From the IMG/VR virus record IMGVR_UViG_3300033998_000198, positions 1 through 64,000 of that record: a stretch of 64,000 nt of DNA; one strand, given 5' to 3'. How positions within the stretch are numbered: the first letter of the stretch is position 1; the number at the start of each line of letters is the position of its first letter. The notes beneath the pieces were generated by a model. It did no database searches. It had not been told where the DNA came from and was given only the letters and a program-made list of their open reading frames with translations. This document shows, in pieces, positions 31,769-63,161 of this stretch. Made by a program: the position numbers and the translations under genes. The stretch is from a virus.

Positions 31769-32283
31769 TGAAGGTTGATCTTGATTTTAGAGATGAAATG
31801 AATGAATGGATAAGAGATTATGGGGTTACAGTTCTGTACCAGAGAAGCAGCAATTACATAAAGTGTTCATGTGTAGACCCATTATATAAAGCTCCAGATT
31901 CAAGATGCACCAAATGTAATGGTACTGGCAAATTGATTAAAACTCAGAAGTTGAAGATCCTGATGCAGGAGCAATACCCTCCAAACAGAAAAGGACAGAG
32001 AAAAGGACAGTATGATTACTCTCAAGTTGGACAAATATACGCTCCTCAGATAACTTTCTACTTTGTCCATAACGAACCACCTAAAGTAAAAGATATAGTT
32101 TATATAGTCGGTTGGGATAAAGGAAGACCAGTAAATCTTATCAATATGTATGAGATCACGGGATTCCAAGGACATAGAGGGGAAGACGGAAGAATAGAAT
32201 TCTATATGATATCGGCAACAAGCAAGCCAGAACTGATGAGCAGGGGTAAAGAGTATTTAGATAGATTGAGGCGAATGAGATGA
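31768..32283 (+). CDS. Head-closure/neck protein with a Zn finger
   Basis: 'CSCVD...PDSRCTKCNGTG'; position between adaptor and sheath; overlapping start/stop. Confidence 0.55.
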   Translation: MKVDLDFRDEMNEWIRDYGVTVLYQRSSNYIKCSCVDPLYKAPDSRCTKCNGTGKLIKTQKLKILMQEQYPPNRKGQRKGQYDYSQVGQIYAPQITFYFVHNEPPKVKDIVYIVGWDKGRPVNLINMYEITGFQGHRGEDGRIEFYMISATSKPELMSRGKEYLDRLRRMR

Positions 32284-41762: not shown

Positions 41763-42359
41763 ATGTTTGATCCAAAACAAGTAGACACGTTAGTAGCTAC
41801 AGCAAGAGAGACTTTGCGTAGACAACAGGAGGAGATGACACCAGGAGAGCCGGAGAATTTCTATCAGGACTTGATAGATGAGCAAAACGGAGAACAGGAA
41901 AAAGTTAAAGTACCTGAGAACGATTATGAAATAAAGAATGCTCCGGATAGTTACGAAGAAAGACCACATATTGCAAACAAACCAAGTGCAGAAGATTATC
42001 AGGAATATCCTAAAATTGATGAATTCGATAAACCAATATTCCCTGGCGGTCCGCTGCAATCTCAAATCAACTCCTGGAAGAAACAGTTCACAGGATATGA
42101 CATTTACGTTACAGAAGTGGCCGGAGAATACTTTGTATTCAGGACTTTGAACCGTTTTGAATACAAACAGATTGTATCTTTGCAAAATACAGATCCTCTC
42201 ATGCGTGAGGAAATTATCTGTGAAACCGTTACACTGTGGCCGGCAGGTTATAAATGGGATAGCATGGCAACGGGGAAGGCCGGCATTCCATCTACTTATT
42301 CTCAGATTATCATGGAGAAATCAGGATTCACTAAAGATTACGCTATCCAAATACTATAA
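41763..42359 (+). CDS. Tail assembly chaperone 1
   Basis: 'YFVFRTLNRFEYKQI...EEIICETVTLWP...AGIPSTYSQIIMEKSGF'; position between tube and tape-measure loci. Confidence 0.7.
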   Translation: MFDPKQVDTLVATARETLRRQQEEMTPGEPENFYQDLIDEQNGEQEKVKVPENDYEIKNAPDSYEERPHIANKPSAEDYQEYPKIDEFDKPIFPGGPLQSQINSWKKQFTGYDIYVTEVAGEYFVFRTLNRFEYKQIVSLQNTDPLMREEIICETVTLWPAGYKWDSMATGKAGIPSTYSQIIMEKSGFTKDYAIQIL

Positions 42360-43066
42360 TGGAACAATTACAAGCATTCGATCTTTTGGTATTCAAGGAG
42401 CAGAATGAAGGTCACAGGGTCATGTATATCAATATTTGTAATCGTGAGTTTGTATTTAGGACTCTTGGAAAGAAGGAATACAAGAACATCCTGAATGTTG
42501 CAAATAATGAATTTGATCTCGAAGATATGATATGCCAGATTGCTTTGATATACCCTGAAGACTTTGACTTCAAGGATTGTCCTCTTGGAGGGTTGTCAAA
42601 GACAATTGCTCCTTTGATTACCGAACTTTCCGGATTTACCAATCCTGAGATCGTCCAGGAGACTTACGACCAGTATCGCCTGGAAATGAATAGTTTTGAG
42701 AATAAGGCATATGCCCTCATTAAGATGGCATTCCCCGAATTTACGTTTGAAGAAATGGAAGAATGGACATGGGATAAGGTTCTCAAGGTTGCAACAAAGG
42801 CAGAGTTTATCCTGAATGAAACTCACTTTAGAGATAACCCTATCGAGCTTGTCAAAGTAGACACTACGCCGCAGAAACAAATGGAACGCACTGAGTTTGT
42901 TCAGGAACTGCGGCAACAGGGTATTGACCCGATGAAATATTTCTGGAATGAAATTAATGTCAAGCCTCAATATGTAGACTTTCCGTTAATCGGTGGTGTG
43001 CATTGGCAGAACGAGGGGATATTGAATGAGATCAGACGACAGATGGAGAGAGCATCTAAGAGGTAA
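42359..43066 (+). CDS. Tail assembly chaperone 2 (paralogue)
   Basis: 'EFVFRTLGKKEYKNI...EDMICQIALIYP...GGLSKTIAPLITELSGF'; TAATG coupling to chaperone 1. Confidence 0.7.
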   Translation: MEQLQAFDLLVFKEQNEGHRVMYINICNREFVFRTLGKKEYKNILNVANNEFDLEDMICQIALIYPEDFDFKDCPLGGLSKTIAPLITELSGFTNPEIVQETYDQYRLEMNSFENKAYALIKMAFPEFTFEEMEEWTWDKVLKVATKAEFILNETHFRDNPIELVKVDTTPQKQMERTEFVQELRQQGIDPMKYFWNEINVKPQYVDFPLIGGVHWQNEGILNEIRRQMERASKR

Positions 43067-46000
43067 ATATCCAGAGTATCTGGGCAGACAGAGAAAATGG
43101 GCCGAAGATTATGACAGAGACGATACCGTAAAAGACGACAGCATCTTATCAAAACTGCTTATCGCTGCGGCGATAGGTGCTGCCGGATATGGTTTATATA
43201 AAAGCGGTGCATTAAGAAAGGCCATCAGTAAAGGCATTGATGAATTAGGGGAGTATAAAGGCGTTATCCCTGAAGCATTCAATGCCTTAAAAGCATGGAC
43301 TAAAACTGATGTGGATGTTCCAATCGGAAGCATATTCCGTCAGAATTTTTCCTCCTTAAAGTCTGTATCTAACTTTGTAAAGAACAAGGACATTATAAAT
43401 GACACCCTTGCCGATTTACGTGGTCTTCGTGAAATGGTTCAAAAGAGGATCGCACAGGTTAAAGATGAAGCCGACAGGATTACCAAAATGGCTGTCAAGG
43501 AAACAGACTTATTGTTTGAGATAGGTAATCTCAATGAAATGATGGATTCTGTCAAAGCAGACGATATACTGAAACGCCACCAAATGGAAATCGGAAACAA
43601 GGCACTTCAGACACTGATAGAAAAGAGAAGCGAAGGAGCTATGTCAAAGGCTGCCCAAGCAAAGCTCAAACAAAATGGATACAGGCTTCTTACTATAGGT
43701 GATGTTCTCAAGGTAGACACACAGACAAATAAACCGTTGCTTATTAACAGCACAAGCAGGTTCGAAGTAGAAGAACAGACATTAAAAGAACTGACAGATT
43801 TCTTCTCTACCTTTGAGGTAATAGACAAAAAGACCGGGAAGAAGTCTCTTGCAATCAATAACTTTGACATGATCAAAGACATCACATTCGATAGAGGACT
43901 CATGATCAATGAGTTCGGAAAGATTGCAGACATAAGGCGAGCTGACAGACACTTTGCACAGATGATGGTTTCTGCTTCGCTTGATTTTCATATACCGTTA
44001 ATAAAGATACGTCCGTTTGAAATGGTCGGACTGCATAACAAATTCATGCGTCAGGAAGTAAAATACGGTTATCTGTCTGCAAAAACATTTCAGCCAATAC
44101 TTACAGGTAAGCCCGGTCAGGAGTATCTCGGCAAGAGCATGGTGTTCATGCACGGTAATGTATTTGACATAGATAAAAACGGTAACATGAAATTAGTTGC
44201 CCAGGGAGGTAAACTGCTCCATATTCGTGACGACGCAAACGTTGGATATGGAATCAGCAAACACGCCGATATCATAAGAAAAATGGCAAACCTTCAGAAT
44301 GTACACTTCCAGACGTACACAGCCGAGGACGGACGAATCAAGGCGGCTTACTCTAAAGTGATGGAATGGTTCGGGCTTGGTTTCCAGGACAAGAAGATAT
44401 CAACGGAATTTGAACTCTTTAAGCCTTCAACATGGGATTCTCTACTTAATAAATGGCAGCCGTTCAGGCCATACAAATCCTCATTTGTAACAAGACCGCA
44501 GGATTCTTTCGGACATTCTCCGACAGGTCCTACGTATTTGTTTATGTATCAAGGCAAGACATTTAAAGACGTAATGCAAGGCAGCGTATCTATAGAGGAT
44601 TTCTTCAAGCAGTTTGTTGCAGGAAGAAAGAACTTGAAGAATGTAACTACGGCAACAATGGTTCCGTATCATCTTCTTGACCGTCTCAGCAACTCGCTGA
44701 GAGCTGTTAGTGCAGGTGGTATTAGCCTTGGCTTAAAGACAGAAGACCTTGGATCGGTCCAGGATATCTTCAAGAACTTGATGCTAAAGCGTATACTTCC
44801 GGTTTATCTTGGCATACAGGCTTGGATATACATAAATAACAAAGAAGAAGGCAAACAGCCTGAAGACAAGATTGCAAATACTGTTGTAAACCTCGACCTT
44901 GCATGGCATGGAGTAAAAGACAGGCTCGGCCTTACATCTTGGGCAAAACGTGTATCTCAGCTTATGCCAGGAGGAGAGCAGATAAGTGACATTCCCGGTC
45001 TTGGAGTTCTCGATATGACTTCAACCAGGGAGGAAAAAGAACAATGGTACAAGACTGGTATGGAGCCAATTCGTAAAGGGCGTTACTGGAGTCTTGGCAA
45101 TACTCCATTTACTGGAGGCAAGATAGAATATTATGCACCAAATTGGTACAGAAGGGTAATCAGCGATTACAAGTGGACAGATTCACAGTGGGGAAGTCGG
45201 GATGAATACTTTGCAAATGCTCCATTTCCGACTCCAAAATATCCTTTCGCTCCAATACGGCACTTTATTACTGACCCGTATCATTGGGAGAAAAAGCATT
45301 ATCATGACAGACCATATATGCTGTCGTCTCCGGCATTCAGTAATGTACCAATAGTAGGTCCTGTACTCAGTGCAACTCTTGGCCGGCTGTTAAAACCACA
45401 GATTCGCATGCATCCTGAAGCATGGGCACCAAAACTTGAAGGGTATTCGGTCGTGGATCAAGGAACAGGAGATAACACCGGTACTGTTCTTCCTGACCAA
45501 TTGGTTGCAACAAATAGGTTTCCTGGAACTGAAATCACAGTTGTCCCTGAAGCAGAAATGGGACAGAAGCCGCTTGATTCATTGTTTCATTGGAGCAGGA
45601 AACCGAAGACCAATACAAATGATATTATATATGTTACGCCAAGCGGGCAAACAAGCATTGTCAGCATACCTAACAGCATCTCAATCAAGGATTTGAACGA
45701 CCAATTACGTAAAGAATCAATCAGGAAAGTCCGTGGTGCGTCTGAGAAACGTGATGGTGGTCTGATTAAAGATAACGCTGTTGCAAAACAACTCATCAGC
45801 AATATCGAGAATACGTTAAATGACCAATACGATGTATTCTCTGAAATTGGAGGTATATATGGATTCGGTATCAATGCTCTTATAGGTAATGGTTCTGATG
45901 TTGGTGGTGTGGAAATCGAAACACCCGCCTATGCGACATCCTTAAATAAAGCATTCTGGGATCAGGATCTCGGTGGACTTGGTGGAGAATTCTCTGAAAT

Positions 46001-48617
46001 CTATCGTAGGTTTATACCAAAGAGAAGGCGTGAGATTGAATATTACAATCCAATCAGAAACACCATGCCTACATGGATGCCGGGAACAGATTATTTTACA
46101 GACTTCCAGCATGGTGATCCTTACGCCAAGATTAAACGTGGAGAAGCAAGACTTCCTGGAGAAGGGTATGAGAAGCTATATGGAATCAGAGACCCTATGG
46201 AGCTCGGAATAGGTTCGTCGTTTATAGGTAAATCAGTTGATGATATCGTTAAACATTTCTTACACCAGGACGAAATCATAGACGAAGACCAGCTTGATAT
46301 TGTGCAATCTGGTACAGATTTTCATGAGAAAGTTCAGTCGGCATGGAAAAAGAAAGGCTTGCTTCTTGATGCAGAAGTTGAAGTTAATGACAGGAAACAC
46401 AATGTCATTGGATTCTATGATGCACGTATTCTTGATGAATCTTCACCAACAGGCGACGCTATTGCTGAAATAAAGACAATCAACGATAATGGGTTTAAGG
46501 AACTTGACAAAAAAGGGCCAATGGATTACCACCAGAAACAGCTTAACTTCTATCTGTGGGCAACACATAGGCCAAAAGGTTATATTTATTACATCAACAG
46601 GGATCATCCGGAACAGGAAGCAAAAATATTCCCTATGGCATATGACCAGAAGATGATGGAAGAAACATTCAAGAATCTTGAGCAAGCCAGGAAGATCATC
46701 AAAGACAAAATAGCCTTAAATGAGATCCAAAGAGGAGACTTGTACGATTACTTTGACAGGTTCCGCATACTTGCAGATGTAGCACCATACTCAAAAGAGT
46801 TCAAAGAATACAGGGCTTTGATAAGCAAGATGCAGCTAACCAAGGAACAAGAGGCTGAAGCAAAGGAAATACGTAAGCGTGTAATTGAACAAAACAAACC
46901 GCTTAGGATATATCCTTATAAATTCCAGACTTCAAACATAAAAGTACAGACTGTAACTGTAAAACGCAAGATAGACAACGAGAAGTTCCTTACATATGAG
47001 TTCCCTGACAACCCAATAGAGCTTGCCGGCGTTAATCTTCCTAACAGCAAAACTTCCAAAGAAGGGAGGGCAGCAACTCAGTTTATTGACCGGTTTATCC
47101 ATGAAGGAGCCAGGATACAGGTCGGAGTTGATGCAGACCCGTTGAACCTTATACAGGATAACACTTATAAGACGATCAAAGCTGTCGTATACTCAGGCAA
47201 GACAAACATCAACCGCACGGCAATACAGCAGGGAGTAGGAAAGGAAAATGAAGATGACTTCTCGCCTGCCGGTGTTCATGCTCGTTTTACCGAAGGTGAA
47301 ATCAGATTCGGCAAAGTATGGGAGAAATTCGCTCACTTGAATACTATGTTCCATATAAAGTTCTTGCAGGTAAGGTCTGCACTTGAGAGTTATGAACGCA
47401 GGGATTTATACGGCAAAGACTTTCAAAGATGGGAGCATCCTATCCGGGACTTCCTCCGCCCAGCAATCGACCAGAATATAAACAACAAGTATGGAATACT
47501 GGTTGGCGGTTTGGTCGGCTCATTGTTTGGCCGTACACTTTATGGTAAAATTATAGGAGCAACAGTTGGTGTTGCAGTAATTGGTTCAGGTAAGGCATAC
47601 AAGAAAGCATATGAATTAATTTCAGGTGAGAAATGGATACCTGAACGCAGGGAAAAAGAACGTGATTTAAACGAATACATTGACATCCTGAAATTTATCA
47701 AATACAAGCGATTGTATGTTGAGTATGCACAGAAATCAAAACTCAAGGAGAACTTTGATGTTCAGAAGTTCCTTGACGCTCAGAAAGCTCGTGGTGAAAA
47801 AAATAAAGCAAGAATCAAGGATCTTGAAGAAGCAAAGAGGTTAATAAAAATCAAGGGCGACAGTGCAATACGGTCGATGTATAAACAGTATAGACCAAAA
47901 TACGGCACCCCAGGAATGAACGTGGACGAGATGATATCTGCAATCAACAAAGAAATGACAGAACTCATGAATGAACGAAAGGCCGTTAAAGTTCCAAAGA
48001 TTGCACAAAAGGCCATTGCATACTACAACTTATCAGAGAAGACCATGTACGGATACGATGTCGGAGAGCCTATCCAAAACATCCTGGCCGCAATGCCAAA
48101 GAAGGATAGACAGTATCTCAGTTACTTTATGAAAGCTCCGGAAGAAGAACGCATGAAGATTCTTGAGGTGGCTCCACGGTATGTCCGCAGGGTTCTCGAA
48201 CAAACATGGGGGCTGCCTGTTGAGGGCAAACCAGATCTTATTCAGTATTTCAAGCACCATCAACTTCCAGGACCTGACTGGGAAGGATGGGATGAAAACA
48301 TAAACCTGGATCTGGTTAAAGTTAAAATGGTTCGTAATGAAGCCCTTGATATTTCAGATTTTAATATCTGGGAAGACGACGTGCAGCAGGCAAAAGCAAT
48401 GGGACCTATTCCGCTGCCTAAACTATATATAAGTGACTATGCAGAGAAGGTAAAGGCAAAACTCGAAGATCTACTGCACGGAATAGGACTAAACGACGTA
48501 TCTGTAAGCTATTCTCTATCATCAAAGGATATTGATGTAGATATAGACCTGCAAAGAGACAAAAAGAAAGAGATAGAGAGGTACATTAACGAAAAAGGTG
48601 CATCTCTATTCCAATAG
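43026..48617 (+). CDS. Tape-measure-position protein with a PD-(D/E)XK nuclease and an SNase-like domain
   Basis: 1863 aa directly after the chaperones; Gly/Ala hydrophobic stretches; motifs GTDFH1100, E1117, D1132, E1148-I-K1150 and Q1172LNFY; SNase-like segment at ~46950-47260. Confidence 0.75.
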   Translation: MRSDDRWREHLRGKYPEYLGRQRKWAEDYDRDDTVKDDSILSKLLIAAAIGAAGYGLYKSGALRKAISKGIDELGEYKGVIPEAFNALKAWTKTDVDVPIGSIFRQNFSSLKSVSNFVKNKDIINDTLADLRGLREMVQKRIAQVKDEADRITKMAVKETDLLFEIGNLNEMMDSVKADDILKRHQMEIGNKALQTLIEKRSEGAMSKAAQAKLKQNGYRLLTIGDVLKVDTQTNKPLLINSTSRFEVEEQTLKELTDFFSTFEVIDKKTGKKSLAINNFDMIKDITFDRGLMINEFGKIADIRRADRHFAQMMVSASLDFHIPLIKIRPFEMVGLHNKFMRQEVKYGYLSAKTFQPILTGKPGQEYLGKSMVFMHGNVFDIDKNGNMKLVAQGGKLLHIRDDANVGYGISKHADIIRKMANLQNVHFQTYTAEDGRIKAAYSKVMEWFGLGFQDKKISTEFELFKPSTWDSLLNKWQPFRPYKSSFVTRPQDSFGHSPTGPTYLFMYQGKTFKDVMQGSVSIEDFFKQFVAGRKNLKNVTTATMVPYHLLDRLSNSLRAVSAGGISLGLKTEDLGSVQDIFKNLMLKRILPVYLGIQAWIYINNKEEGKQPEDKIANTVVNLDLAWHGVKDRLGLTSWAKRVSQLMPGGEQISDIPGLGVLDMTSTREEKEQWYKTGMEPIRKGRYWSLGNTPFTGGKIEYYAPNWYRRVISDYKWTDSQWGSRDEYFANAPFPTPKYPFAPIRHFITDPYHWEKKHYHDRPYMLSSPAFSNVPIVGPVLSATLGRLLKPQIRMHPEAWAPKLEGYSVVDQGTGDNTGTVLPDQLVATNRFPGTEITVVPEAEMGQKPLDSLFHWSRKPKTNTNDIIYVTPSGQTSIVSIPNSISIKDLNDQLRKESIRKVRGASEKRDGGLIKDNAVAKQLISNIENTLNDQYDVFSEIGGIYGFGINALIGNGSDVGGVEIETPAYATSLNKAFWDQDLGGLGGEFSEIYRRFIPKRRREIEYYNPIRNTMPTWMPGTDYFTDFQHGDPYAKIKRGEARLPGEGYEKLYGIRDPMELGIGSSFIGKSVDDIVKHFLHQDEIIDEDQLDIVQSGTDFHEKVQSAWKKKGLLLDAEVEVNDRKHNVIGFYDARILDESSPTGDAIAEIKTINDNGFKELDKKGPMDYHQKQLNFYLWATHRPKGYIYYINRDHPEQEAKIFPMAYDQKMMEETFKNLEQARKIIKDKIALNEIQRGDLYDYFDRFRILADVAPYSKEFKEYRALISKMQLTKEQEAEAKEIRKRVIEQNKPLRIYPYKFQTSNIKVQTVTVKRKIDNEKFLTYEFPDNPIELAGVNLPNSKTSKEGRAATQFIDRFIHEGARIQVGVDADPLNLIQDNTYKTIKAVVYSGKTNINRTAIQQGVGKENEDDFSPAGVHARFTEGEIRFGKVWEKFAHLNTMFHIKFLQVRSALESYERRDLYGKDFQRWEHPIRDFLRPAIDQNINNKYGILVGGLVGSLFGRTLYGKIIGATVGVAVIGSGKAYKKAYELISGEKWIPERREKERDLNEYIDILKFIKYKRLYVEYAQKSKLKENFDVQKFLDAQKARGEKNKARIKDLEEAKRLIKIKGDSAIRSMYKQYRPKYGTPGMNVDEMISAINKEMTELMNERKAVKVPKIAQKAIAYYNLSEKTMYGYDVGEPIQNILAAMPKKDRQYLSYFMKAPEEERMKILEVAPRYVRRVLEQTWGLPVEGKPDLIQYFKHHQLPGPDWEGWDENINLDLVKVKMVRNEALDISDFNIWEDDVQQAKAMGPIPLPKLYISDYAEKVKAKLEDLLHGIGLNDVSVSYSLSSKDIDVDIDLQRDKKKEIERYINEKGASLFQ

Positions 48618-48628
48618 GGGGTTAAAGC

Positions 48629-54600: not shown

Positions 54601-57523
54601 ACTTCAAGCTGATACTGAAGTTAAACAGAAAGCACTGATAGATGTATTTAACGCTCAAGCAAGAAACAATGCCAAGCTATTTAAGAAGGCTCTTGAAGAT
54701 TATGCCGACGTAGAGCCTGACGGACTCAAGGCTTATAGTGCAAAAGGCTTCGATGAATTTCTTGTCAAGAAGATTTCAAAGAAGTTAGGGTACACCGGAA
54801 CAGATCAGGAAATCTTCGACCAGTTTGATGCAAGATCCAACAAACTGATGGACCCTGAAAGAAGAATGACAGCCGTAAAGGCCAACTTTGACAAGGCCGG
54901 TATCGGTTATATATCAAACACTAATGTGATTGTAAGGGATATAGCTTTTGAACAATTCAGAGATTCTGGTGATATATATACACTTTCAAACATCCTTGAG
55001 TTTACAGACAAGACAGAGCAGAAACTGATTGACGTTAAGCATATGAAAACAATGGGCGAGGGAAGCGGTAATATTGATGATATCATTATCAAAGCCGGAC
55101 GATACAGAACTGCAATAAACACCCTCGCAACAGGTGATGCAAGGCAAAAAGATGAAGCAATCAACAAACTTCGTGAAATTTTGTTCAATAGTGATGTTTA
55201 CAAGAGAGAGCAGTCCGTAAGGGTTGATGAAGTTCTCAGTTCGCTCCGTCAATTGTTTGACAGCAAGTATGCAAAACAATGGACAAACCCAATCAGAAGC
55301 AAGATGTCAGGAAAAAATTATGCCGAACAGATTAAGGACGTCAATAACTTCCTGAAGAATCCCACAGCATACGGCGGGACTGAGTTAACAAATCTTTCTG
55401 TCAATGAAGTGATTCATGCAAATGATATAGACACTATAAGCATTGACGATACAGCTCTTGTTCCTCCATCAAAAGGAACAGAATATCCCGTCTTGCTAAA
55501 GGACAGTGCTGGCAAAACATCTCCACCAATAGGTGCATATGTATATAGTGGTTCAGGTGTTGGTGCCAATACCAATATGAAGTATGTTGAGCTTGAAGAA
55601 TTCATCACAGATCCTTCTGTAAACAAAGCAAGAAGCAAACGTTACAGGATATACGGCAATACAATGGCTGATATCCAGCGTCAGATGAGAGATGAGTTCA
55701 GAGTAGCAACTGACATCAATGATGTCCAGAATTTGATTGATGTTGAGAAGGGTAGAATCCTTGACTCGGCGATGTCAAGCGGTTTTGAGTTCGAGAAAGA
55801 GCGTATTACGGCTGAATTCTTAAACGGTGGAAGTATTGATGATATTTTGGCCAAATCAACCATAGGGGTAGAGAACCGTCAGGATATCATCGATCATCTT
55901 ACCAATCTTAACCCTACTCAATATCAAAGCGAAGCATACAGGCAATTGGCTTCAGAGTTCTTTGACAACGAAATGACTGGCCGGCCAATGCGTAGATTCT
56001 CTGCCGCAGTATCAGAACTGGCTGAAAGAAATTACATTGGAAACCAGGCAAGTCTTATACAGGCATTTAATAACTATATACGGCAACGTGGTGCTGAAGG
56101 CCCTTCAGACAAATGGAATCCTGCAATGATTTCAGATGTCCATGATGAATTAATCCGAAAGGCATTGTATCAGGTTCCAGGTCTTCCATCAGCACAGATA
56201 GAAGGAATCCTAAACCAGGTTAACACCGTAGCGGACGATATGATAGCCCGTAAAGGAGAAATACGGTTAAGACCTGCTAAAGTACAGAATGTTGCCGAGA
56301 CTATTGCAAGAATACAGGATACTCCATTGTATGACATGAAAAGTGCCTTCTCTCAACTTGAGAACATGGCAAACGATATGTTAGGCAATATAACAAAAAC
56401 TCAACTGGAAAGTTTTGCTGAAGCAACACGGCTTAGTCCCGAAGATGCTATCGCAAAACTTAGGCATACTGTAAAGAACGAGAATATCCAACTTCCATTC
56501 AAGGCAATCACTCAGGCTGAAAGCGTTAAGATAGCTTCGCTTAACCAAATGTATTCAGAGCTTCTTGCGTCAAAGAACCAAGAAGCAATGGATTTCCTTG
56601 GCTGGAAACCTATAAATGAAGTTGTCAACGCATACAACCCAAGTGCGGCAGCAAGAGCTGTAGGTGAAACTTACGACCCAATTGCGGCCATACGTGAAAT
56701 TGGCCAATCCAAAGTTACTTATGGAAGATATGCCGGCATGGAGTTCTCGTCATTATCAATCGGGGAGCTCAAGGAAATTATGAATCTCCGTCCTGAAACT
56801 GCAAAGACCAGAATTGAAGCGGACAATATTGTAGCTCTCAAACAAAGAGTAAATCAATATTTCTCATTGCTTGACCAGAATACATCAGCAGTAAGAGCTG
56901 AAGGAATTAGTATAAATATTCCTGAAGCTGTACGCAAATCGAGGTATGTTGATGTAGATATAAACGAACTTTTAAAGTCCAATGGTATAAAGTTAAAGAA
57001 CTTGGACGATTTATTGGATACAACCAAAAGGGACTTAAAATTTGATATGGCTCGTGGTACAATAAAAGAAGGGGTAGAAAATGCTGTCAAGCGTTCCGAA
57101 GATTTGTTTGGAAGCAGTAAGTTCGGAAAGATAGCTCTTGCCGGTTTGGCTCTTGGTCTTGCAGGATATATTGTTGGACAGATGAGTGCAAAACCAGGAC
57201 CGCTACAACCGGAGCATAGACCTTCAGGCGAAGGAGCTCCCGCACCAGATGGAACTTACGAACCGAAAGTCAACTATAAAACACCACAACCGCAGATGCC
57301 AAAGAAAGCAGTAATGCAGGAAAACAATTCTGGAATGCGGATAAAGATAAGTGCAAAGAATGGAACCAGCATGTCAAACAGTGATGTTGCTGGAGCAGTA
57401 AACAAAGCCATCGCTGATTCCTTGCCAAATAGAATGAATGTCAACGTGGTTTCAAGAGACGACACCAGTGCAGTCAATGACAGTTGGTTGGAAGAACAGT
57501 TTAAGAGGCTTATAGGAGGGTGA
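48629..57523 (+). CDS. Giant single-chain two-barrel RNA polymerase with an N-terminal DEDDh exonuclease (putative virion RNAP)
   Basis: beta-like: PF...RQ1197, K1387LIMGGVEK1395, G1553LKITDRE. beta'-like: SGR1783LSHSG, LR1936YP, N1972ADIDAD1978. Exonuclease: D96LE98, H251NGSKFD257, H332VASND337. Confidence 0.85.
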   Translation: MAIRPVMSANMNSNLKMNRYSDFFNGMDEEKIDAYKNVRGMIDELKGTEADVSLKDFYFKSFNAGVMDYNIPALEQGMNMFNDMLDAGAGSVYAMDLETLGNPFGDASEKGLFAITEMTLTKKDLATGTVLDVQNVLFGLTEEQRLAYENLIARAELGYNSLTSSEKATIERLARYGAKDTKIINRGGKAILANLGIANPMDLTAAKKGLNRLVDIGPGQAWGSQFARDQLIIASNHLNQIKGPNNILFTHNGSKFDMPAFNEALRMHGISNTINDINHVDFQAAIHTAYGGDTLNLHLTARETNGVKGKIKGALETLDKLAESFGIRTHAHVASNDNRTLINLLTAPYRKTEHGTINLGQDLKSRLNAYSVLSKHQDIDPSTVADKVIFVKNAVYTNGLDYIKTSEGIKPYGDWPLQRNNFYRIENVGKVNIKDTASLRKIGINVPAGSTGSDLYYMTLRNVATGKEEETINIVRSSREELQALFQKNLEVFRYTKDLKDISSDLDAKMALQNQIVSQAMIDETTRLATRDNARRKFEGMFQTSGKGFNYAKGMYQTYNNLYQNGITTAEEAALYIQNNPTSELLRGLQYKGDIIPERRSDFLEMFNLIRDTSDTMTTVINRIESNIPVKGEAGTVKRTVALGRAYENLQNAIMQASGVAENIAKNRKLITPYPMDIDVINIGVDDIHRITVRARSVEEARINILNGIDKLVGTEKNKRARENKRMFYLRRLAENVYGKDSEKLERMFGQLDSAYYTAGEIAGDLNKQFLDGTLNIGRDEIYATDLDSYVINSSTFDQFMVDNNINVLGLTDAASAHIGSLTEASLGDTVVMEKGVFTIKDENLRKLLMEDYHYSADNVHDLMRGLYGKSPDGTEYGLVNKHGLVAELFVDEEGYLSIALTDKKHATELYESLAKNEVPKNAAISRLPQVSYYGDDTDLLKKVSFGSVEKQVTTELNTYYSPGSSESYYNNIRIAARDTTSESLNSLVKLHRVLPDLIEAGEYDRASRQLTNTMAAPIFGGSGFSGNTTVAIDDILAEKALRPNVSDIITASTVDMTGLVNFIPELYKRDEEIRNDLNRILVNNKAIDDRFIDNWIRDIQAGNLKQFSDMDIELREWYTMNMFEGHKILHKIRDLKAEGGRLFQKEVSLLDSLIANGASFFNKAEKVSEGIAVLENPFEYVTYGFMNELSRPVARQSLAFHALDPRELTGASVKLEAAGMKLGQTVVTDKMYNKYLKKYRFETGITGDIKNLNDTEILDAIESLDKEELYKKYGRSRVDKVINEYKTIGSTFQQHSLINPMLTADIYNKPELIKFDVTGNSFEFAEGLGVGKKIKSGSLLGYEIDGETRRAVVYNGQDGIISGFINRKNAQKVVIKPFNAQIDEIKLIMGGVEKSVASVVNRDAEMLPIAQEIWDKLFGKSTAVVGRFEIGKHEAASIAYGSTITRMAERALEHGEAVQNEFANLLNQNLPEWNGRWEGNKFVISGNPNAAGGHFSGIRNLVDAMRDKGIYDDIIADFDNPNTNTLRTLISKGQMSEMFSVMEDEADIYGKGLKITDRELQIAGIRSGEQPTDFFFQDANGKWQKKLQPVIDAWREEITRENIELENGKLLETNYSKAKKDLRNITNTYSALRGETPTAAIKELHFDDVKPILKGVDAATLEDALKGTVFEDVADVFKITLPNNMKVLNMVTGEMDDHIYIPYLHSYDIDGKVITHNAHRKSADLLRMLDSIAEGKLPNGVRSMSQLQSALNDAYAEAMAAYGRELSDDKNSILKRHLVSGRLSHSGQGLAGAVVSPELFKNGEVDSRLAGIVHSDVVEKVGDKILYKDVAYTSAEMLEDMGVNFAEIGRQVLEDKKIRSQIGDVDAFIARSGFNRYDLTKAPIDIDMLHEIIKQKILKDNNPYTIDDAREALENLTQLGKYYAREKGIMSIMLRYPSFLQTSLGVTNIRLSPYMHGRKFNIMSWTAAGLNADIDADRLSVWLNLTKTGGLQADTEVKQKALIDVFNAQARNNAKLFKKALEDYADVEPDGLKAYSAKGFDEFLVKKISKKLGYTGTDQEIFDQFDARSNKLMDPERRMTAVKANFDKAGIGYISNTNVIVRDIAFEQFRDSGDIYTLSNILEFTDKTEQKLIDVKHMKTMGEGSGNIDDIIIKAGRYRTAINTLATGDARQKDEAINKLREILFNSDVYKREQSVRVDEVLSSLRQLFDSKYAKQWTNPIRSKMSGKNYAEQIKDVNNFLKNPTAYGGTELTNLSVNEVIHANDIDTISIDDTALVPPSKGTEYPVLLKDSAGKTSPPIGAYVYSGSGVGANTNMKYVELEEFITDPSVNKARSKRYRIYGNTMADIQRQMRDEFRVATDINDVQNLIDVEKGRILDSAMSSGFEFEKERITAEFLNGGSIDDILAKSTIGVENRQDIIDHLTNLNPTQYQSEAYRQLASEFFDNEMTGRPMRRFSAAVSELAERNYIGNQASLIQAFNNYIRQRGAEGPSDKWNPAMISDVHDELIRKALYQVPGLPSAQIEGILNQVNTVADDMIARKGEIRLRPAKVQNVAETIARIQDTPLYDMKSAFSQLENMANDMLGNITKTQLESFAEATRLSPEDAIAKLRHTVKNENIQLPFKAITQAESVKIASLNQMYSELLASKNQEAMDFLGWKPINEVVNAYNPSAAARAVGETYDPIAAIREIGQSKVTYGRYAGMEFSSLSIGELKEIMNLRPETAKTRIEADNIVALKQRVNQYFSLLDQNTSAVRAEGISINIPEAVRKSRYVDVDINELLKSNGIKLKNLDDLLDTTKRDLKFDMARGTIKEGVENAVKRSEDLFGSSKFGKIALAGLALGLAGYIVGQMSAKPGPLQPEHRPSGEGAPAPDGTYEPKVNYKTPQPQMPKKAVMQENNSGMRIKISAKNGTSMSNSDVAGAVNKAIADSLPNRMNVNVVSRDDTSAVNDSWLEEQFKRLIGG

Positions 57524-57530
57524 GGTCATA

Positions 57531-60500
57531 GTGGCAGACTATAGAAAAAGCACTTCCCTGTTCTCTAAATACAGAGATCCGGGAGGTATTAGCACAGGCG
57601 AGCTATTAGACAGATATTACAACATTCCCGAAGGCAGGACTACAGCTCCCCTGTCTTACCTTGATAATGTCGATTTTCCGCATAGGATATTCGATTTCCA
57701 TTATAACTTCAGACTTGGCGATTGTCAGTTCAAGATCCCTCCGGAATTCATACAGGTAAAGACAATTACCGAAACAAATTCCGTTGTAGGAATTAGACAG
57801 TCTACTTCGCTAAAAACCAAATCCGGGTATAGCCGTAAACAGATCGTTATTACTCTGTTTTTCAACGGACTTAACCAGATCAACGGATATAAATGTGAAT
57901 CGCCTTTTTCATATCCTTACTACATGGACGGTCTCCGGAGTCTTCTTGCTCAATTCAAGAGGACCCCGTTCCTTCCTGTTGTAAATGAACTTATTAATGG
58001 AGTACATGGAATATACAATGTAGCATTATCAAACATTACAATCAACACCGTACAGGGGTTTCCTGAATGTCTCCAGGCGGAACTCACGTTGCTTGACTTT
58101 AACGTCGTACCGTTGATTGAAGCTCCTCCTTTTATGTATCATAACATGATAGACTGGGATATGTTCAGATGGTACTATCAGCAATTACTTCGCCCTGATG
58201 ACAGGGTATACGACAGGAACGAACATGCTACAACAAGACTTCAGCCGATACAGAATACAAACCTTACAGGTAAGTTCGGATTGTATATATTAAGCGAAGA
58301 AGCTCTTGCTGCAATGAACGACGGAAAGTACAAGCCAGACCTAAGCGACAGCAGTAACTATATACTGTGTGTTGACGACGAAACCGGTATACGCCTGACA
58401 GATATATTCTGCGGTTACTCAAACGTGCTTCCTGCAATACAGTTAAGCAAAGAAGGGACGCCTACGTATCAGTATCTTGGAGGTACAGATGCGACGTTTA
58501 CCTTTATATTTGAAACTCAGGACAGAGATGTCGTTACGGCTCTGGTTGACTTAAATGAACGATGCCAGAGGATGGTAAGGGAGTACCGCAAACTTCACGG
58601 CCTCGGCTTCATCAAAATAGAGAACGAATTAGTGCAAATGCTCGGTGCACAGTATGTCATGTTCAATACAATGGACATCACTACTGTGCCCGACTTCCCA
58701 GATTTGTTTAGAATACAGATAGAGGCTGTAAGTTACGATATTGACCAGAGTAAGAAAGAAACATTGACTGGCATGAAGCCTTTCGATGGCGATGGCACAT
58801 TGCTTGCCAGAAAAGTAGGTACAACCTATGATTGGACTGAAGTCGCAGAACCAAACACAACCATCACTAACACTTATATGGGTCTTATCACAAAGATCCG
58901 GCAGGACAATTACATAGAACACAAGATGAAGCTCATGGACCTTTATCCGGACCTTCAGCTACCTACGTTTGAAGAATTGGATGATTTTATCACAACCATA
59001 AGAGAATGGAGAAGGAGTAAGGGGCTTCAGGCATATCCTTTGTCTGGACCGTACCCGAAAGACGACGGTAGAATTAAATTCTCAGATCCTGATTTCTACG
59101 TTTTCTACCCTATTAAATACGGAGACGCACAGAATATTATAACAGGAACCGGAGGAAATGTAGGAGGAGAAACTTACGATCCTGATGACGGTGCAATTTC
59201 AGTTGCCGGTATATTCAAGTCTGGATTGTATGGTGCAACAGAAACTACGCCCGGACAGCACCCAAAGACACAAGAATTGCTTAAACTTCTTGAGAGCAAA
59301 ATAGGATGCGGATATGTATGGGGTGCTGAAGGAGAGATTCTTACTCAGGAAGGTCTTGCTGCCTTAAAGAAGCAATTTGGAGCAAGTCATTATGATTTTG
59401 TTGATGATGATGGCACTCGTGTTCTTGCAAGTAAATGGATAGGTAAACAGGTGTTCGACTGCTCTGGATTTATTAACTGGGGGCTTATCCAGGTTGGAAT
59501 TGCTCCAAAAGGATACAGAACCACACATTCAACTACTTTTAATGACTGGTGTATCGAAATCAAAAAGAGCGAAATACTCCCTGGCGATATAGCCATGAAT
59601 TCAACCCATATCGCAATGATATCTGATCCTGACAAAGATCAAACAATCGAGGCTATGGGTACACGGTACGGTGTTGTTCACGGAAAGATAGGGAATAGAT
59701 TCACAAAGTTTGGAAGACTAAAAGGCGGAAAGACAAAGAGCTCAACAACTCCAACACCGAATGCCGCAACTCAACAGGTTAGCAAGGCACAGACTACAGA
59801 TTACAATGCAAAGCGTGATGCTTATAACCCGACATACCAGGCAATTTACGATTATGCAAACATACAGTGCACAAAGCTCGGCGTTCCAATTCGTCTAATG
59901 TGTGCAATGATGGAGATAGAAAGTAATTGGACACAATGGTGGACGACAGCAGGGAAGAAAGCGGATGGCAAGTACCATAACGCAGGAGATGTTGTAAGGT
60001 CTTACGCAAATGCTGTTGGTATCTGCCAAATTGTGCACCATAGTCCTAACGGTACTCCTGTCAATAATCAATACGATTATGACAAACTGCAAAATGACTG
60101 GAGATATAATATAGAGTGCGGGGCCAAAGAACTTTATGAATGCTATAAGGGGGCATCACAAAGATTTACAAATGAAGAAGACCGAGCAAGAGCTGCATGG
60201 TGTGCATATAACATGGGGCGTTATGCAAGTCAGAGCTATACAAGATGGAGAGATAACCCTAACAGGGATGATATAAAGTTTAAGGAATATTATGAGAAGC
60301 AACCCTGGTTATCGAGAATTGACACCGCAAAGATTCCGACTTCCAATGGGACAGATTACACTGGAAGCGTAGAAGTTCCAGAAACCGACCTTAGTGTTAC
60401 AAACAACTTTGCAAGTCTTAACTTCAACAGGGAGGAATTCGGCAAAGATATACGCAGACTGTCCGACATCCACGGCGGTGTAAAAGAAACCAAGAACTTT

Positions 60501-63161
60501 AACGGCCATAAACAAGACAAATATCCTATTGAGCATATGTGTCATGATATGACCCAGTACAATAAACGTGGAAGACTCCTTAGAGCATTCCCGACATTTA
60601 TATTTATGATGCTTGATGAAAACGGGGATTGGCTTGATGGAAAGAAATTGTGGACTAACTATTATTTCTATAGATCCATTATGGATATCCAGATTCATCA
60701 GGACAGGAAACAGCCCGTACATACTGCTATAATTAAGATCAGCAATGTGTACAACAACCTGGGAAAATCACCACCAAGGGAGTACGACTGGGTAAAAGAA
60801 CAGATGGGTGGAGGTATACAGGGATGGTTGTATGAAACCTTTGGTATTCAGGTTGGAACACCAAAGGCAACACAATCAATGGTTGAGAACAAGAACAAGG
60901 TTTTAAAACATGTTTACCTTGATGCAGGATGTAGAATTCATTTGAGAATTGGATACGGAAATGATGCCGAGATGCTGCCAATAACATTTACCGGCCAAAT
61001 AACCGAAATGGATACTGCTGAAATCATTACATTTGTAGCCCAGAGTGACGGTGTCGAACTTATTAATAGAGCTGTAGGGACAAACAACAAGAGTCAAACC
61101 AACACGCTGTTTAACATAGGCACAGAGCCTTCAAATATCATTAAGTCCTTGCTGTGTGACCGTGAGAGCGATTTCATATCATGGTGTAACCACAAATGGT
61201 ACGAGAACAGCAAGTATGGTATTCAGCATTTTGGAACTCCTACATTGGTTGATGACACCGGTTTTGTCAAGTTTAACATTGACAGGTTTGTTGATGTTAG
61301 TATGAACATGGCTTTTGATACTGAAACAATGAAAATGGTTCAGGCAATTAAGGCCGAGAAAAATCCTATGGCGGCTATAGGAGAATACTTTGAACAGACA
61401 TTTAAAGACTGGAAATGGACAGATCCTTCTACATGGTGGGAATCGTTCAAGAACATGTTCAAAGTTTTAGCCGCACTCACTCTTGAAGCCGGTATGAAGT
61501 TGGAGCTCAGTGTCGGACAGGCGATAGTTGATTTTGTTGCCGGTAACTACAAAAACATGTCGTGGCCTGAGTATTATGACATCATCAAGAACATTTATCT
61601 TGGAGGCATCAAGGGTGATGAAGAAAGGATGGAGGACTATGCCGCTATCCATATGAACCTTAATGGTAAATTGGCGATTGATCCGTTTGACGGCGAGGAA
61701 AATTTACGTGTGTTTATTTATAACAAATGTGTATGGGATATCATGCAGGTTGTAACACAGTCAATTCCTGAATTTGTATGCCAACCAATGTATCATCAGT
61801 TTGAAACAAGAGTATTCTTTGGTCATCCTTTTTGGCTCGCAAAATACAAATACTATTACGATGCCAAAGATAGGAAGATATACGAACATGAGAAACCTTT
61901 TACTCAGTTTCATCTGTATGATTCGTTGAGTGACATTATAGATAACCAAATCAAGGCTGATGGCAGGGGGCTTGCTACTAACATTATTGGTATGTATACA
62001 CTTGGCCATAGCTTAAAGACAACACCCACTATATTCGCAGACAAGACGATTGCGTGGGACTATCAGAAAACAAGGGTTATTGATACATCGTTTGTTCAGA
62101 ACTGGTTTGGGCCGGATATGTTGTACGAGTTTTTTGACGACTATAAGGCAGAGCGTACAGCAATCAGGATATGCACATCAAACCTGATAGACGGCTTCCA
62201 GTGTATTTACAAAGGCCCACTGATAGTAATAGGTGATTCCAGTGTAAAACCGTGCGATATCATAGGAATAACCGATAGCTACACTGGTATGTACGGATTA
62301 GCAGAGGTAAGGGAGGTATCACACTCGTTTAGTGTGGATACAGGATTTGTAACATCCATAACTCCAGACCTATATACAACCGGTGCTGGGTTTATGATGA
62401 AGCAGGATGCTCAGAGCGTATTCTTATCTCTTGCGATGGGATTTGGTGGTATTGTAGCACAACGTTCAGCAGGTATATTTGCTGCAAATACAGCCGTAAG
62501 ATATGCGGCTGCCGGTACTGGAGTTGCTATAGGGCTTGTTGCAATACGGGTTGGTGGACTGATAATCGATGGGTTCAGGACTGGGCGAATACTCCTTAAT
62601 GTCAAGGATTTTGCAGACACATTAAAGACAGCCAAAGAGATAAAGAACCTTACGAAAACGATTAAAGAAGTCAAGAACATAAAAACAGCCGTCAATGTTG
62701 CAAAACAGGCTGGCATGGCAGCAAAGTCAATACAGGCTGAAGCTGCATTGCTCGGCACTGAGATACTCCCAGGTATAGGTACTATCGTCCTGTGGCTTGC
62801 AGCTACGATCGCAACCGAATGTCTATTAAAGGCAGTAGTTGACTTCTTTAGCTATCAGAACTGCATTAAGTGTTTCCCGCTCTTATATAATGGCAAACCA
62901 TTTATAGCAGGAGTTAAAGGACACACACAACTCATACCTGGATACAACGACATGGGTATGCTGGCTGACGACACAAGCAAGCCAATAGAAGAAGGTATTG
63001 AGATTGAAGGCGAATATGCAAACAGCTCTGCCGGCACAGCATCTGGTGGTTATGACGATGGACTTGGTTATACTGAAGGTCCTAAGATGAGCGGCGGCCC
63101 AATTGATGGTGCAAAGCCTGGAGAAGATGGCTATATGCCTGGTGCAGGATTATACGCATAG
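57531..63161 (+). CDS. Baseplate hub/tail-associated lysin with NlpC/P60 and lytic transglycosylase domains
   Basis: 'IGCGYVWG...FDC644SG...PGDI...H693I...IE707A' (NlpC/P60); 'MMEIE797S...AVGICQI...YNIECGAKEL...AYNMG' (SLT); hub-like 'CRIHLRIGYG...FTGQITE' and 'GDSSVKPCDII...EVSHSFS...GFVTSITP'. Confidence 0.8.
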   Translation: MADYRKSTSLFSKYRDPGGISTGELLDRYYNIPEGRTTAPLSYLDNVDFPHRIFDFHYNFRLGDCQFKIPPEFIQVKTITETNSVVGIRQSTSLKTKSGYSRKQIVITLFFNGLNQINGYKCESPFSYPYYMDGLRSLLAQFKRTPFLPVVNELINGVHGIYNVALSNITINTVQGFPECLQAELTLLDFNVVPLIEAPPFMYHNMIDWDMFRWYYQQLLRPDDRVYDRNEHATTRLQPIQNTNLTGKFGLYILSEEALAAMNDGKYKPDLSDSSNYILCVDDETGIRLTDIFCGYSNVLPAIQLSKEGTPTYQYLGGTDATFTFIFETQDRDVVTALVDLNERCQRMVREYRKLHGLGFIKIENELVQMLGAQYVMFNTMDITTVPDFPDLFRIQIEAVSYDIDQSKKETLTGMKPFDGDGTLLARKVGTTYDWTEVAEPNTTITNTYMGLITKIRQDNYIEHKMKLMDLYPDLQLPTFEELDDFITTIREWRRSKGLQAYPLSGPYPKDDGRIKFSDPDFYVFYPIKYGDAQNIITGTGGNVGGETYDPDDGAISVAGIFKSGLYGATETTPGQHPKTQELLKLLESKIGCGYVWGAEGEILTQEGLAALKKQFGASHYDFVDDDGTRVLASKWIGKQVFDCSGFINWGLIQVGIAPKGYRTTHSTTFNDWCIEIKKSEILPGDIAMNSTHIAMISDPDKDQTIEAMGTRYGVVHGKIGNRFTKFGRLKGGKTKSSTTPTPNAATQQVSKAQTTDYNAKRDAYNPTYQAIYDYANIQCTKLGVPIRLMCAMMEIESNWTQWWTTAGKKADGKYHNAGDVVRSYANAVGICQIVHHSPNGTPVNNQYDYDKLQNDWRYNIECGAKELYECYKGASQRFTNEEDRARAAWCAYNMGRYASQSYTRWRDNPNRDDIKFKEYYEKQPWLSRIDTAKIPTSNGTDYTGSVEVPETDLSVTNNFASLNFNREEFGKDIRRLSDIHGGVKETKNFNGHKQDKYPIEHMCHDMTQYNKRGRLLRAFPTFIFMMLDENGDWLDGKKLWTNYYFYRSIMDIQIHQDRKQPVHTAIIKISNVYNNLGKSPPREYDWVKEQMGGGIQGWLYETFGIQVGTPKATQSMVENKNKVLKHVYLDAGCRIHLRIGYGNDAEMLPITFTGQITEMDTAEIITFVAQSDGVELINRAVGTNNKSQTNTLFNIGTEPSNIIKSLLCDRESDFISWCNHKWYENSKYGIQHFGTPTLVDDTGFVKFNIDRFVDVSMNMAFDTETMKMVQAIKAEKNPMAAIGEYFEQTFKDWKWTDPSTWWESFKNMFKVLAALTLEAGMKLELSVGQAIVDFVAGNYKNMSWPEYYDIIKNIYLGGIKGDEERMEDYAAIHMNLNGKLAIDPFDGEENLRVFIYNKCVWDIMQVVTQSIPEFVCQPMYHQFETRVFFGHPFWLAKYKYYYDAKDRKIYEHEKPFTQFHLYDSLSDIIDNQIKADGRGLATNIIGMYTLGHSLKTTPTIFADKTIAWDYQKTRVIDTSFVQNWFGPDMLYEFFDDYKAERTAIRICTSNLIDGFQCIYKGPLIVIGDSSVKPCDIIGITDSYTGMYGLAEVREVSHSFSVDTGFVTSITPDLYTTGAGFMMKQDAQSVFLSLAMGFGGIVAQRSAGIFAANTAVRYAAAGTGVAIGLVAIRVGGLIIDGFRTGRILLNVKDFADTLKTAKEIKNLTKTIKEVKNIKTAVNVAKQAGMAAKSIQAEAALLGTEILPGIGTIVLWLAATIATECLLKAVVDFFSYQNCIKCFPLLYNGKPFIAGVKGHTQLIPGYNDMGMLADDTSKPIEEGIEIEGEYANSSAGTASGGYDDGLGYTEGPKMSGGPIDGAKPGEDGYMPGAGLYA

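Follow-up and report, generated by a model that had tools for sequence, protein, structure and literature searches.

The window analyzed here, 64,000 nucleotides in length, is the start of a viral contig from IMG/VR (131,934 bp, estimated to be ~61% complete). Its GC content is ~41%, and its large open reading frames (ORFs) all lie on the + strand. We focused on positions 41763-63161, for which an earlier note had proposed a tail-delivered enzyme system composed of chaperones, a nuclease giant, an exonuclease-RNA polymerase (RNAP) giant and a dual lysin. The tight packing described there was confirmed: the block consists of five + strand ORFs at 41763-42359, 42359-43066, 43026-48617, 48629-57523 and 57531-63161, which overlap or stand 7-16 nt apart and are each preceded by a good Shine-Dalgarno/ribosome-binding site. 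The first two match chaperone families, and the last three encode the large proteins referred to below as giant 1 (1863 residues), giant 2 (2964 residues) and giant 3 (1876 residues). The central finding is that giant 2, which occupies the tape-measure slot of the tail module, is predicted to combine a DEDDh exonuclease with a single-chain two-barrel RNAP.

The full-length giant 2 (48629-57523) had nothing significant in Pfam or PHROGs, nothing in a phmmer search against the PDB, and nothing at E ≤ 1e-5 in a tblastn search of 50,697 phage records. The family came to light only through HMMER, with which residues 1500-2500 were run against all of 1.84 billion representatives, and through a family model; the HMMER run yielded 24 proteins, mostly 2500-3170 residues long. 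Across this very diverged family, whose representatives are only 20-40% identical, the length is kept at ~2400-3170 residues. From the N- to the C-terminus, giant 2 comprises the DEDDh exonuclease, the two-barrel RNAP, a linker with little conservation, a membrane-like helix of the Gly-zipper kind and a C-terminal module resembling gp146 of Bacillus phage 0305phi8-36.

The RNAP core covers residues ~1300-2230 (52526-55318) and was delimited by AlphaFold2 modeling, Foldseek, VIA and profile searches. Its catalytic loop NADIDAD (residues 1972-1978, 54542-54562) is the counterpart of NADFDGD in β'. In the alignment of 24 relatives, G1929, R1936, P1938, D1974, D1976, D1978, G2093, S2096, E2130 and K2137 are invariant, and N1972 is kept in 21 of the 24. 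The segment R1936-Y-P-S-F-L-Q-T-S1944, with R and P in all 24 and F and S in 22 each, matches RQPSLHKMS of Rpb1, and SGRLSHSGQG (residues 1781-1790; R1783 and S1787 each in 20 of 21) matches GKRVDYSGRS of β'; like the loop, these are motifs found universally in the largest RNAP subunit. Further upstream, the β-like motif K1555-x3-R1559-x2-Q1562, each position of which is kept in 19 of 21 relatives, has the same spacing as KFASRHGQ of Rpb2, its assumed counterpart. In multisubunit RNAPs, N458 and R425 of β' contact the ribose of the nucleoside triphosphate, and we take N1972 and R1936 of giant 2 to be their equivalents. Since these ribose-reading counterparts are conserved, RNA rather than DNA synthesis is favored. 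With regard to profiles, Pfam RNA_pol_Rpb1_2 matches the stretch with the β'/Rpb1 signature motifs at a mere E of 0.054. The family profile searched against PDB sequences reached the β' subunit of the phiKZ non-virion RNAP (nvRNAP) at E 8e-4 and dozens of bacterial β' chains at E 0.08-0.25, exactly at the DxDxD loop.

The fold of this region was predicted by AlphaFold2 for residues 1300-2300 with the family alignment as input, giving a predicted local distance difference test score (pLDDT) of 75.6 and a predicted template modeling score (pTM) of 0.73. Foldseek returned more than 330 matches in the PDB at E ≤ 1e-3 (best E 2.8e-6, probability 1.00), and the best 50 were all RNAP β'. In VIA, Rpb1, Rpo147 and β' scored Z 9.7-10.1 over 350-395 residues with a root-mean-square deviation of 4.7-5.5, and 516 of Foldseek's top 1000 chains reached Z ≥ 8. 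An exhaustive VIA alignment gave Z 9.7 for vaccinia Rpo147, 9.6 for Pol II Rpb1 and 8.8 for M. tuberculosis β' over 355-385 residues, and single-chain enzymes ranked lower (QDE-1 Z 8.6, P74-26 gp62 Z 7.4, RDR2 Z 7.0). Chains with the double-psi barrel align to residues ~1786-1985, and the β'-like barrel is placed at ~1780-1985. A β-rich region lies at residues ~1530-1715 of the model, and QDE-1, RDR2 and P74-26 gp62 align across it. At the start of the core, VIA recognized a barrel-sandwich hybrid domain (residues 1310-1380, 52556-52768; model residues 11-81), a fold that also forms the β flap. We conclude that residues ~1300-2230 represent a predicted single-chain two-barrel RNAP core with a β-like half followed by a β'-like half. 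The β' half is firmly supported, and the β-type barrel is proposed at the level of motifs.

The second predicted enzyme of giant 2 is a DEDDh (DnaQ-like) 3'-5' exonuclease at residues 82-375 (48872-49753), on which motifs, profile and fold agree. The residues of Exo I (D96/E98), Exo II (N252/D257) and Exo III (H332/D337) are invariant in 19 of 19 full-length relatives, and the family profile matched TREX1-like proteins and Exonuclease I in the PDB at E 8e-5 to 3e-4. In an AlphaFold2 model of residues 1-1200 (pLDDT 74.8), this domain reached Z values of up to 13.7 in VIA, including 12.8 for E. coli DnaQ epsilon with 168 of 174 residues aligned. The search found 59 chains at Z ≥ 8, and those listed were all DnaQ/RNase H-like nuclease domains. 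Foldseek matched the exonuclease model to ExoI at E 3e-4, and exonuclease domains of DNA polymerases are matched as well. Like that of the RNAP, the DEDDh active site is intact, and exonuclease activity is predicted; the earlier label of an exonuclease-RNAP giant is borne out. Between the two enzymes, residues ~380-1300 (49769-52525) form a conserved region of ~900 residues with invariant D401, D532, R535, R536, D1048 and R1192. This region has no recognizable family and may be a diverged β-lobe part of the polymerase or a further enzyme; Pfam gave no significant match for residues 381-1780 and 2230-2964.

The relatives of the virus were traced through its structural genes. Among the window ORFs, PHROGs identified genes for a portal and for a major head protein as well as two paralogous sheath genes (32280-33830 and 34652-36961, + strand) and two tube paralogues. 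A tblastn search with the sheath matched solely the Bacillus phages 0305phi8-36, vB_BceM_WH1, Edson and vB_BauM_KLEB27-3 and the Moorella phage MTATph1, and a search with giant 3 gave the same five phages plus, weakly, Acinetobacter phage ME3. In the annotated genome of 0305phi8-36, the sheath gene ORF139 is followed by the tube gene ORF140, the tube paralogue ORF141, ORF142 and then the tail block ORF143-ORF147. ORF143 and ORF144 are annotated as 'hypothetical tail chaperonins'. According to the record annotation, ORF145 (1930 residues) is a virion protein by mass spectrometry, ORF146 (2537 residues) is a 'hypothetical tape measure protein' also found in virions by mass spectrometry, and ORF147 is a 1903-residue hub/endolysin followed by a P2 gpV-like gene. 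Because the gene order is identical, positions 41763-63161 pair gene for gene with ORF143-ORF147, and synteny spans gp143-gp148. On the basis of sequence, the block is assigned to the tail-interior and hub genes of an uncultured 0305phi8-36-like jumbo myophage.

Giant 2 takes the place of gp146 between giant 1 and the hub, and its C-terminal module (57062-57520) is common to both proteins. BLASTP aligned residues 2812-2958 with residues 2379-2525 of gp146 (E 1.6e-6), and a hidden Markov model (HMM) of the giant 2 family matched gp146 at E 1.7e-15, extending to the helical part after the RNAP. The module contains the membrane-like helix FGKIALAGLALGLAGYIVG (residues 2832-2850, 57122-57178; Kyte-Doolittle peak 1.64). 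Neither BLASTP nor the family HMM detected the exonuclease, the DxDxD loop or the RNAP region in gp146. The family HMM found the whole architecture of giant 2 in two cultured phages, namely in gp034 of vB_BauM_KLEB27-3 (2434 residues, loop KADYDGD, annotated as 'structural protein') and in gp095 of vB_BceM_WH1 (2515 residues, loop KADHDGD, annotated as 'virion structural protein'). In two distant metagenomic members, the neighborhood reads peptidoglycan (PG)-binding proteins, two chaperones, a ~1950-residue giant, the RNAP giant and a ~1840-residue hub with NlpC/P60 and SLT. The cultured phages WH1 and KLEB27-3 have the same surroundings. In MTATph1, the gene in the tape-measure slot (locus positions 11739-19095) is broken by a transposase gene into a 1309-residue piece and small pieces, the last of which retains the C-terminus of the giant 2 family.

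The authors of the 0305phi8-36 genome considered gp146 the ruler, its length matching that of the tail (PMC2147016). The proposal that enzymes are fused into the tape-measure gene agrees with the slot of giant 2 and with the C-terminal ~150 residues that it has in common with gp146. A separate canonical tape measure, which together with the absence of both giants from virions would speak against the idea of the earlier note, was not seen among the large ORFs examined, as no tape-measure family match was obtained for the other large window ORFs (PHROGs) or for the five ORFs just downstream (Pfam). The block itself likewise holds no repetitive tape measure, since each giant was free of internal repeats in a self-BLAST. 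Gene order and homology therefore put the predicted RNAP within the tape-measure gene of the tail module, with the ruler role falling to giant 1, giant 2 or both. That both giants are virion proteins, as had been supposed, is in line with the virion or structural labels on their homologues in cultured relatives, which are record annotations only.

A 4110-residue ORF outside the window (genome positions 68019-80351) was considered as an alternative tape measure and rejected on account of its invasin/Ig-like C-terminus and its position after Baseplate_J. With its invasin/Big_1 Ig-like C-terminus and its location 3' of Baseplate_J, this protein is probably a giant fiber or adhesin resembling the intimin-domain proteins of 0305phi8-36.

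The two small genes at the start of the block were rightly labeled as chaperones. Tail assembly chaperone 1 (41763-42359) matches phrog_29362 at E 1e-42 and holds the position of gp143, and tail assembly chaperone 2 (42359-43066) is the gp144 homologue and matches phrog_29368 at E 1e-32, with phrog_29362 matching over residues 11-101. Residues 105-196 of chaperone 1 are paralogous to residues 12-100 of chaperone 2 (30% identity, E 1e-9). A two-gene G/GT-type chaperone that does without a frameshift has been reported for 0305phi8-36 (PMC2147016), and the pair is predicted to be such a lambda G/GT-type tail assembly chaperone, encoded by two genes.

Giant 1 (43026-48617) is a full-length homologue of the virion protein gp145 of 0305phi8-36 (34% identity), and at least 82 database clusters have the giant 1 region, many of them on contigs of ~200 kb. 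The name nuclease giant is borne out by a PD-(D/E)XK insert at residues ~1085-1235 (46278-46730), which was assigned by phrog_1990 ('Cas4-domain exonuclease', E 1.2e-5) and by its motifs, while Pfam PDDEXK_1 reached E 0.013 and 15.8 bits, under its 22-bit cut-off. The core consists of D1132 and E1148-I-K1150, and the QxxxY motif is Q1172LNFY1176. Among 32 relatives that keep the motif residues, D1132 and N1174 are invariant and Q1172 nearly so. The closest Atlas clusters of the insert are viral PD-(D/E)XK, Cas4 and YqaJ (0.94-0.96). Residues 1085-1240 contain no cysteine and hence no four-cysteine Fe-S cluster, and therefore the insert belongs to the PD-(D/E)XK superfamily and is not Cas4 proper. 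It is also present in gp145 and missing from the homologues of WH1, KLEB27-3 and MTATph1. Because the module is optional among relatives, others of which carry SNase domains or inteins, it is regarded as exchangeable cargo, and by sequence comparison the giant 1 family appears to be a scaffold on which nuclease cargo can be swapped. Many giant 1 homologues bear inteins (LAGLIDADG_3, Intein_splicing, Hint_2), others have SNase (PF00565) modules, and some sources label them thermonuclease or RNase Sa.

A second nuclease-like part of giant 1 is a staphylococcal-nuclease-like OB region at residues 1300-1410 (46923-47255), found by a profile match to thermonuclease 3sr1_A (E 8e-4). The catalytic positions of SNase are apparently not kept in the profile alignment with 3sr1_A, and the region is probably non-catalytic. 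For the rest of giant 1, Pfam gave no significant match. In KLEB27-3, the homologue is divided into two genes of 1340 and 677 residues with a small ORF between them (gp031-gp033, locus positions 4286-11439). The Gly/Ala hydrophobic segments previously noticed in both giants were located as reported. In addition to the helix of giant 2 described above, giant 1 has an N-terminal segment at residues 44-58 (43155-43199; Kyte-Doolittle peak 1.56), with a hydrophobic Gly/Ala stretch at the equivalent position of aligned homologues, and a second, Gly-rich segment at residues 1491-1525 (47496-47600), which is conserved in gp145 and in the MTATph1, WH1 and KLEB27-3 homologues. The claim of a V.V..RD motif shared by both C-termini held for giant 2 (VNVVSRD, residue 2938), but not for giant 1, which has VDIDLQRD. 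A possible homology of the two C-termini was rejected: the ends align in register, yet hhalign gave only E 0.17, and a common C-terminal motif is thus unsupported.

Giant 3 (57531-63161) is the gp147 homologue and a baseplate hub with lysin domains (phrog_20474, E 6e-287). BLASTP against gp147, which holds a T4 gp27-like domain, gave E values of 1e-61, 8e-43 and 5e-38, and tblastn matched the hub proteins of six Bacillus and Moorella phages. The gene lies after the tape-measure slot and before gpV-like and gpJ-like genes, with Baseplate_J downstream. Its reading as a dual lysin is borne out by two wall-degrading domains. The NlpC/P60-like peptidase region at residues 639-711 (59445-59663) contains DCSGF at residues 643-647 and matched Pfam NLPC_P60 at E 0.0017 and 18.7 bits, under the 23-bit cut-off. 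The SLT lytic transglycosylase domain at residues 779-907 (59865-60251) scored 25.5-29 bits, exceeding the cut-off of 21.3 bits. For the homologous hub of a metagenomic relative, both NLPC_P60 and SLT matches are precomputed. Near the C-terminus, hydrophobic segments cluster at residues 1661-1770 (62511-62840; Kyte-Doolittle peaks of 1.6-1.9) and are possible membrane-insertion elements of the hub. The cluster is followed by a Gly-rich acidic tail.

Further cell wall-related sequences were observed upstream of the block. The C-terminal region of the tube paralogue at 37904-39430 matches endolysin families, and a 376-residue ORF 5' of the chaperones (40616-41746) matches endolysin and L-alanyl-D-glutamate peptidase PHROGs. 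In two metagenomic relatives, the position before the chaperones is occupied by three PG_binding_1 proteins. No tRNAs were found in the 64-kb window.

With regard to a second polymerase, five related IMG/VR contigs with a giant-2-type RNAP were searched, three of which are at least 99% complete and two partial. All five carry a separate RNAP of the PF05183 type (RdRP/YonO/QDE-1-like) with a length of 935-1409 residues. The phage 0305phi8-36 has a PF05183 enzyme as its sole recognized RNAP, orf99 (PMC2147016), and no PF05183 match was found in WH1, KLEB27-3 or MTATph1. From 0305phi8-36, WH1 and KLEB27-3, the idea arose that the tape-measure RNAP and the stand-alone PF05183 enzyme exclude each other, but it fails because five of five IMG/VR relatives carry both. 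These relatives look like two-RNAP phages such as P23-45.

The RNAP model was also compared with predicted viral structures. The best match was an unnamed giant-protein fragment (E 6e-16), followed by an uncharacterized protein of Acinetobacter phage ME3 in BFVD (E 4.7e-10), a 'minor tail protein' of an uncultured siphovirus (E 4e-9) and a protein of Microcystis phage MaMV-DC (E 7e-7), and crAss-like RNAP giants match as well. In Acinetobacter phage vB_AbaM_ME3, a cultured jumbo phage of a Gram-negative host, gp036 (locus 9954-14765) is a 1603-residue 'hypothetical protein' in the tape-measure slot, flanked by a gp145 homologue and the hub. This protein, which carries the loop GGDHDQD and a hydrophobic helix near its N-terminus, may be the matched BFVD entry.

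Taken as a whole, the block is best explained as a tail-interior and hub block whose tape-measure-slot protein is an exonuclease-RNAP giant that is injected through the tail, an explanation we consider fairly probable. By analogy with known systems, a transcription enzyme of the phage itself is probably injected by way of the contractile tail. The chaperones would help to load giant 2, and probably giant 1 too, in extended form into the lumen of the tail tube. Upon sheath contraction, the hub lysins would open the wall, and the giants would leave ahead of the DNA, with their hydrophobic segments, in giant 2 the Gly-zipper helix, entering the membrane. The tethered RNAP would refold at the entry site and transcribe the genes that enter first, which probably include the gene of the second, YonO/QDE-1-like RNAP, so that this second enzyme would be launched. 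The exonuclease and the PD-(D/E)XK module may act on nucleic-acid ends, either of host DNA or RNA or of the incoming genome. The earlier note had put forward that the proteins are threaded unfolded, form a channel and refold, and that the membrane helix may tether the RNAP; all of this is plausible by analogy with P23-45 gp96 (PMC10770324).

Several points weigh against this explanation. The virion location, the activity and the tail-lumen packing of giant 2 are argued from analogy, and gp146, the sole homologue with mass-spectrometry proof from virions, is without the exonuclease and RNAP parts. The AlphaFold2 models show compact folded domains where a classical tape measure would have long helices, and ~330 kDa of foldable enzyme would have to fit into the tube lumen. 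Giant 1, not giant 2, directly follows the chaperones. A separate fold match for the β-like barrel was not obtained, its support being the motif and the alignments of single-chain enzymes. Finally, no second RNAP was found in the 131,934 bp of the source genome, which is ~61% complete.

Some of these points lead to a different division of labor, in which giant 1 is the real tape measure and giant 2 is a separate pilot protein, ejected from a store in the capsid or at the end of the tail. The gene order of chaperones and then giant 1, the two family-conserved Gly-zipper hydrophobic segments of giant 1 and its conserved length would suit a ruler. The globular models of giant 2 and the fold that it has in common with crAss-like RNAP giants would suit a pilot protein with a storage like that of the N4 virion RNAP (vRNAP) or of crAss-like cargo proteins. 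However, the 0305phi8-36 authors chose gp146, whose length fits the tail (PMC2147016), and it is giant 2 that has the gp146-like C-terminus and stays at ~2400-3170 residues in a very diverged family, whereas KLEB27-3 encodes its giant 1 homologue by two separate genes. We therefore regard giant 1 as the sole ruler as unlikely, though worth keeping in mind.

The nature of the enzyme domains themselves can be questioned as well, and two such readings are less likely than giant 1 as the ruler. Two-barrel enzymes include archaeal PolD, and giant 2 might accordingly hold a PolD-type DNA polymerase or primase with a DEDDh proofreader, for repair or priming of the genome end as it enters. Proofreading enzymes classically have a 3'-5' exonuclease joined to a polymerase in this way, and the matches of the exonuclease model to DNA polymerase domains fit with it. 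This reading is very improbable, as the top structural matches of the polymerase module were all RNAP largest subunits with no PolD chain among the best 50, the ribose-reading N1972 and R1936 are conserved, and the exonuclease lies ~1000 residues from the polymerase core. It is slightly harder still to credit that the enzyme-like domains are non-catalytic structural relics and the giants only building blocks of tail and baseplate. The PD-(D/E)XK insert is indeed dispensable in several relatives, and the SNase-like region seems to be without catalytic residues, but no catalytic residue of either the RNAP or the exonuclease varies among representatives that are only 20-40% identical, which would be unexpected for relics.

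Starting from the injected exonuclease-RNAP giant, a more far-reaching and rather doubtful proposal is that the three giants work together as a single coordinated machine for injection in contractile-tailed jumbo phages, with a two-RNAP cascade independent of that of P23-45. Here, the hub lysins would breach the wall, and giants 1 and 2 in the membrane would serve as the passage for the DNA. The leading genome end or host nucleic acids would be resected by the DEDDh exonuclease, alone or together with the PD-(D/E)XK nuclease, and this resection would make a template or clear the way for the tethered RNAP, which would transcribe the gene of the YonO-like RNAP.

The closest known system is that of the Thermus phage P23-45, whose tape measure gp96 doubles as an active virion RNAP and is accompanied by a non-virion RNAP (Chaban et al. 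2024, PMC10770324). As in gp96, which is also found in P74-26, G20c and TSP4, a two-barrel RNAP with DxDxD lies in a tape-measure polypeptide with membrane segments. The gene belongs to the tail module, the relatives of giant 2 have a second, stand-alone two-barrel RNAP, and a coupling of DNA entry to pre-early transcription is proposed for both. However, no sequence relationship between the giant 2 RNAP and residues 1-1250 of gp96 was detected (hhalign E 0.16 with a misplaced alignment), and the giant 2 RNAP is thus considered an analogue and not a member of the gp96 family; gp96 is likewise not among the structural matches listed, which favor the multisubunit β'/Rpb1 type. Whereas P23-45 is a siphophage, the giant 2 group comprises contractile-tailed jumbo phages of the Firmicutes type. 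The RNAP is N-terminal in gp96 and mid-protein in giant 2 (residues ~1300-2230), and giant 2 adds an N-terminal DEDDh exonuclease, is without a metallopeptidase domain and adjoins the nuclease-bearing companion giant 1.

The homologous tail block of 0305phi8-36 (Thomas et al. 2007; Hardies et al. 2007, PMC2147016) has the same chaperone pair, a gp145 with PD-(D/E)XK, the C-terminus of gp146 and the gp147 hub. Unlike giant 2, however, gp146 is without exonuclease, DxDxD and RNAP, and the only recognized RNAP of that phage is the separate orf99. Virion RNAPs inside giant polypeptides that are encoded among tail genes and delivered together with the DNA are also known from the crAss-like phage phi14:2 (gp66) and from coliphage N4. 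In these phages, which are podoviruses, the enzyme is kept inside the capsid, the N4 enzyme is T7-like and not two-barrel, and neither protein is set in a tape-measure context or fused to a DEDDh exonuclease. With YonO of SPbeta, QDE-1 and the PF05183 RNAPs, giant 2 has both barrels on one chain in common. A sequence relationship to orf99 was not demonstrated (hhalign E 0.098), and because the relatives encode the PF05183 enzyme as a separate gene, giant 2 is a distinct family.

In the literature searched, we found no report that the tape-measure-slot protein of 0305phi8-36-like phages contains an RNAP. The giant 2 RNAP is unmentioned in PMC2147016, in PMC7824862 and in PMC10770324 with its supplements, and for 0305phi8-36 the jumbo-phage survey lists only the YonO-like orf99 (PMC7824862). 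The concept of a tape-measure RNAP was published in 2024 for Thermus siphophages and is so far proven only there (PMC10770324). The present prediction would extend it to a large and ancient lineage of jumbo phages that have contractile tails, a sequence-unrelated polymerase and a fused exonuclease, and it proposes a function for a ~3000-residue 'hypothetical/structural' protein of cultured Bacillus phages (WH1 gp095, KLEB27-3 gp034). Since WH1 and KLEB27-3 are cultured, the idea is directly testable. It also sharpens the puzzle of storing more than 300 kDa of foldable enzyme in a tail tube and expelling it through that tube. A coordinated injection machine, if true, would be widespread in 0305phi8-36/ME3-like jumbo myophages, a group to which cultured Bacillus phages and, with less certainty, ME3 belong. 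Overall, the findings suggest that host-independent early transcription may be common among 0305phi8-36-like jumbo phages.

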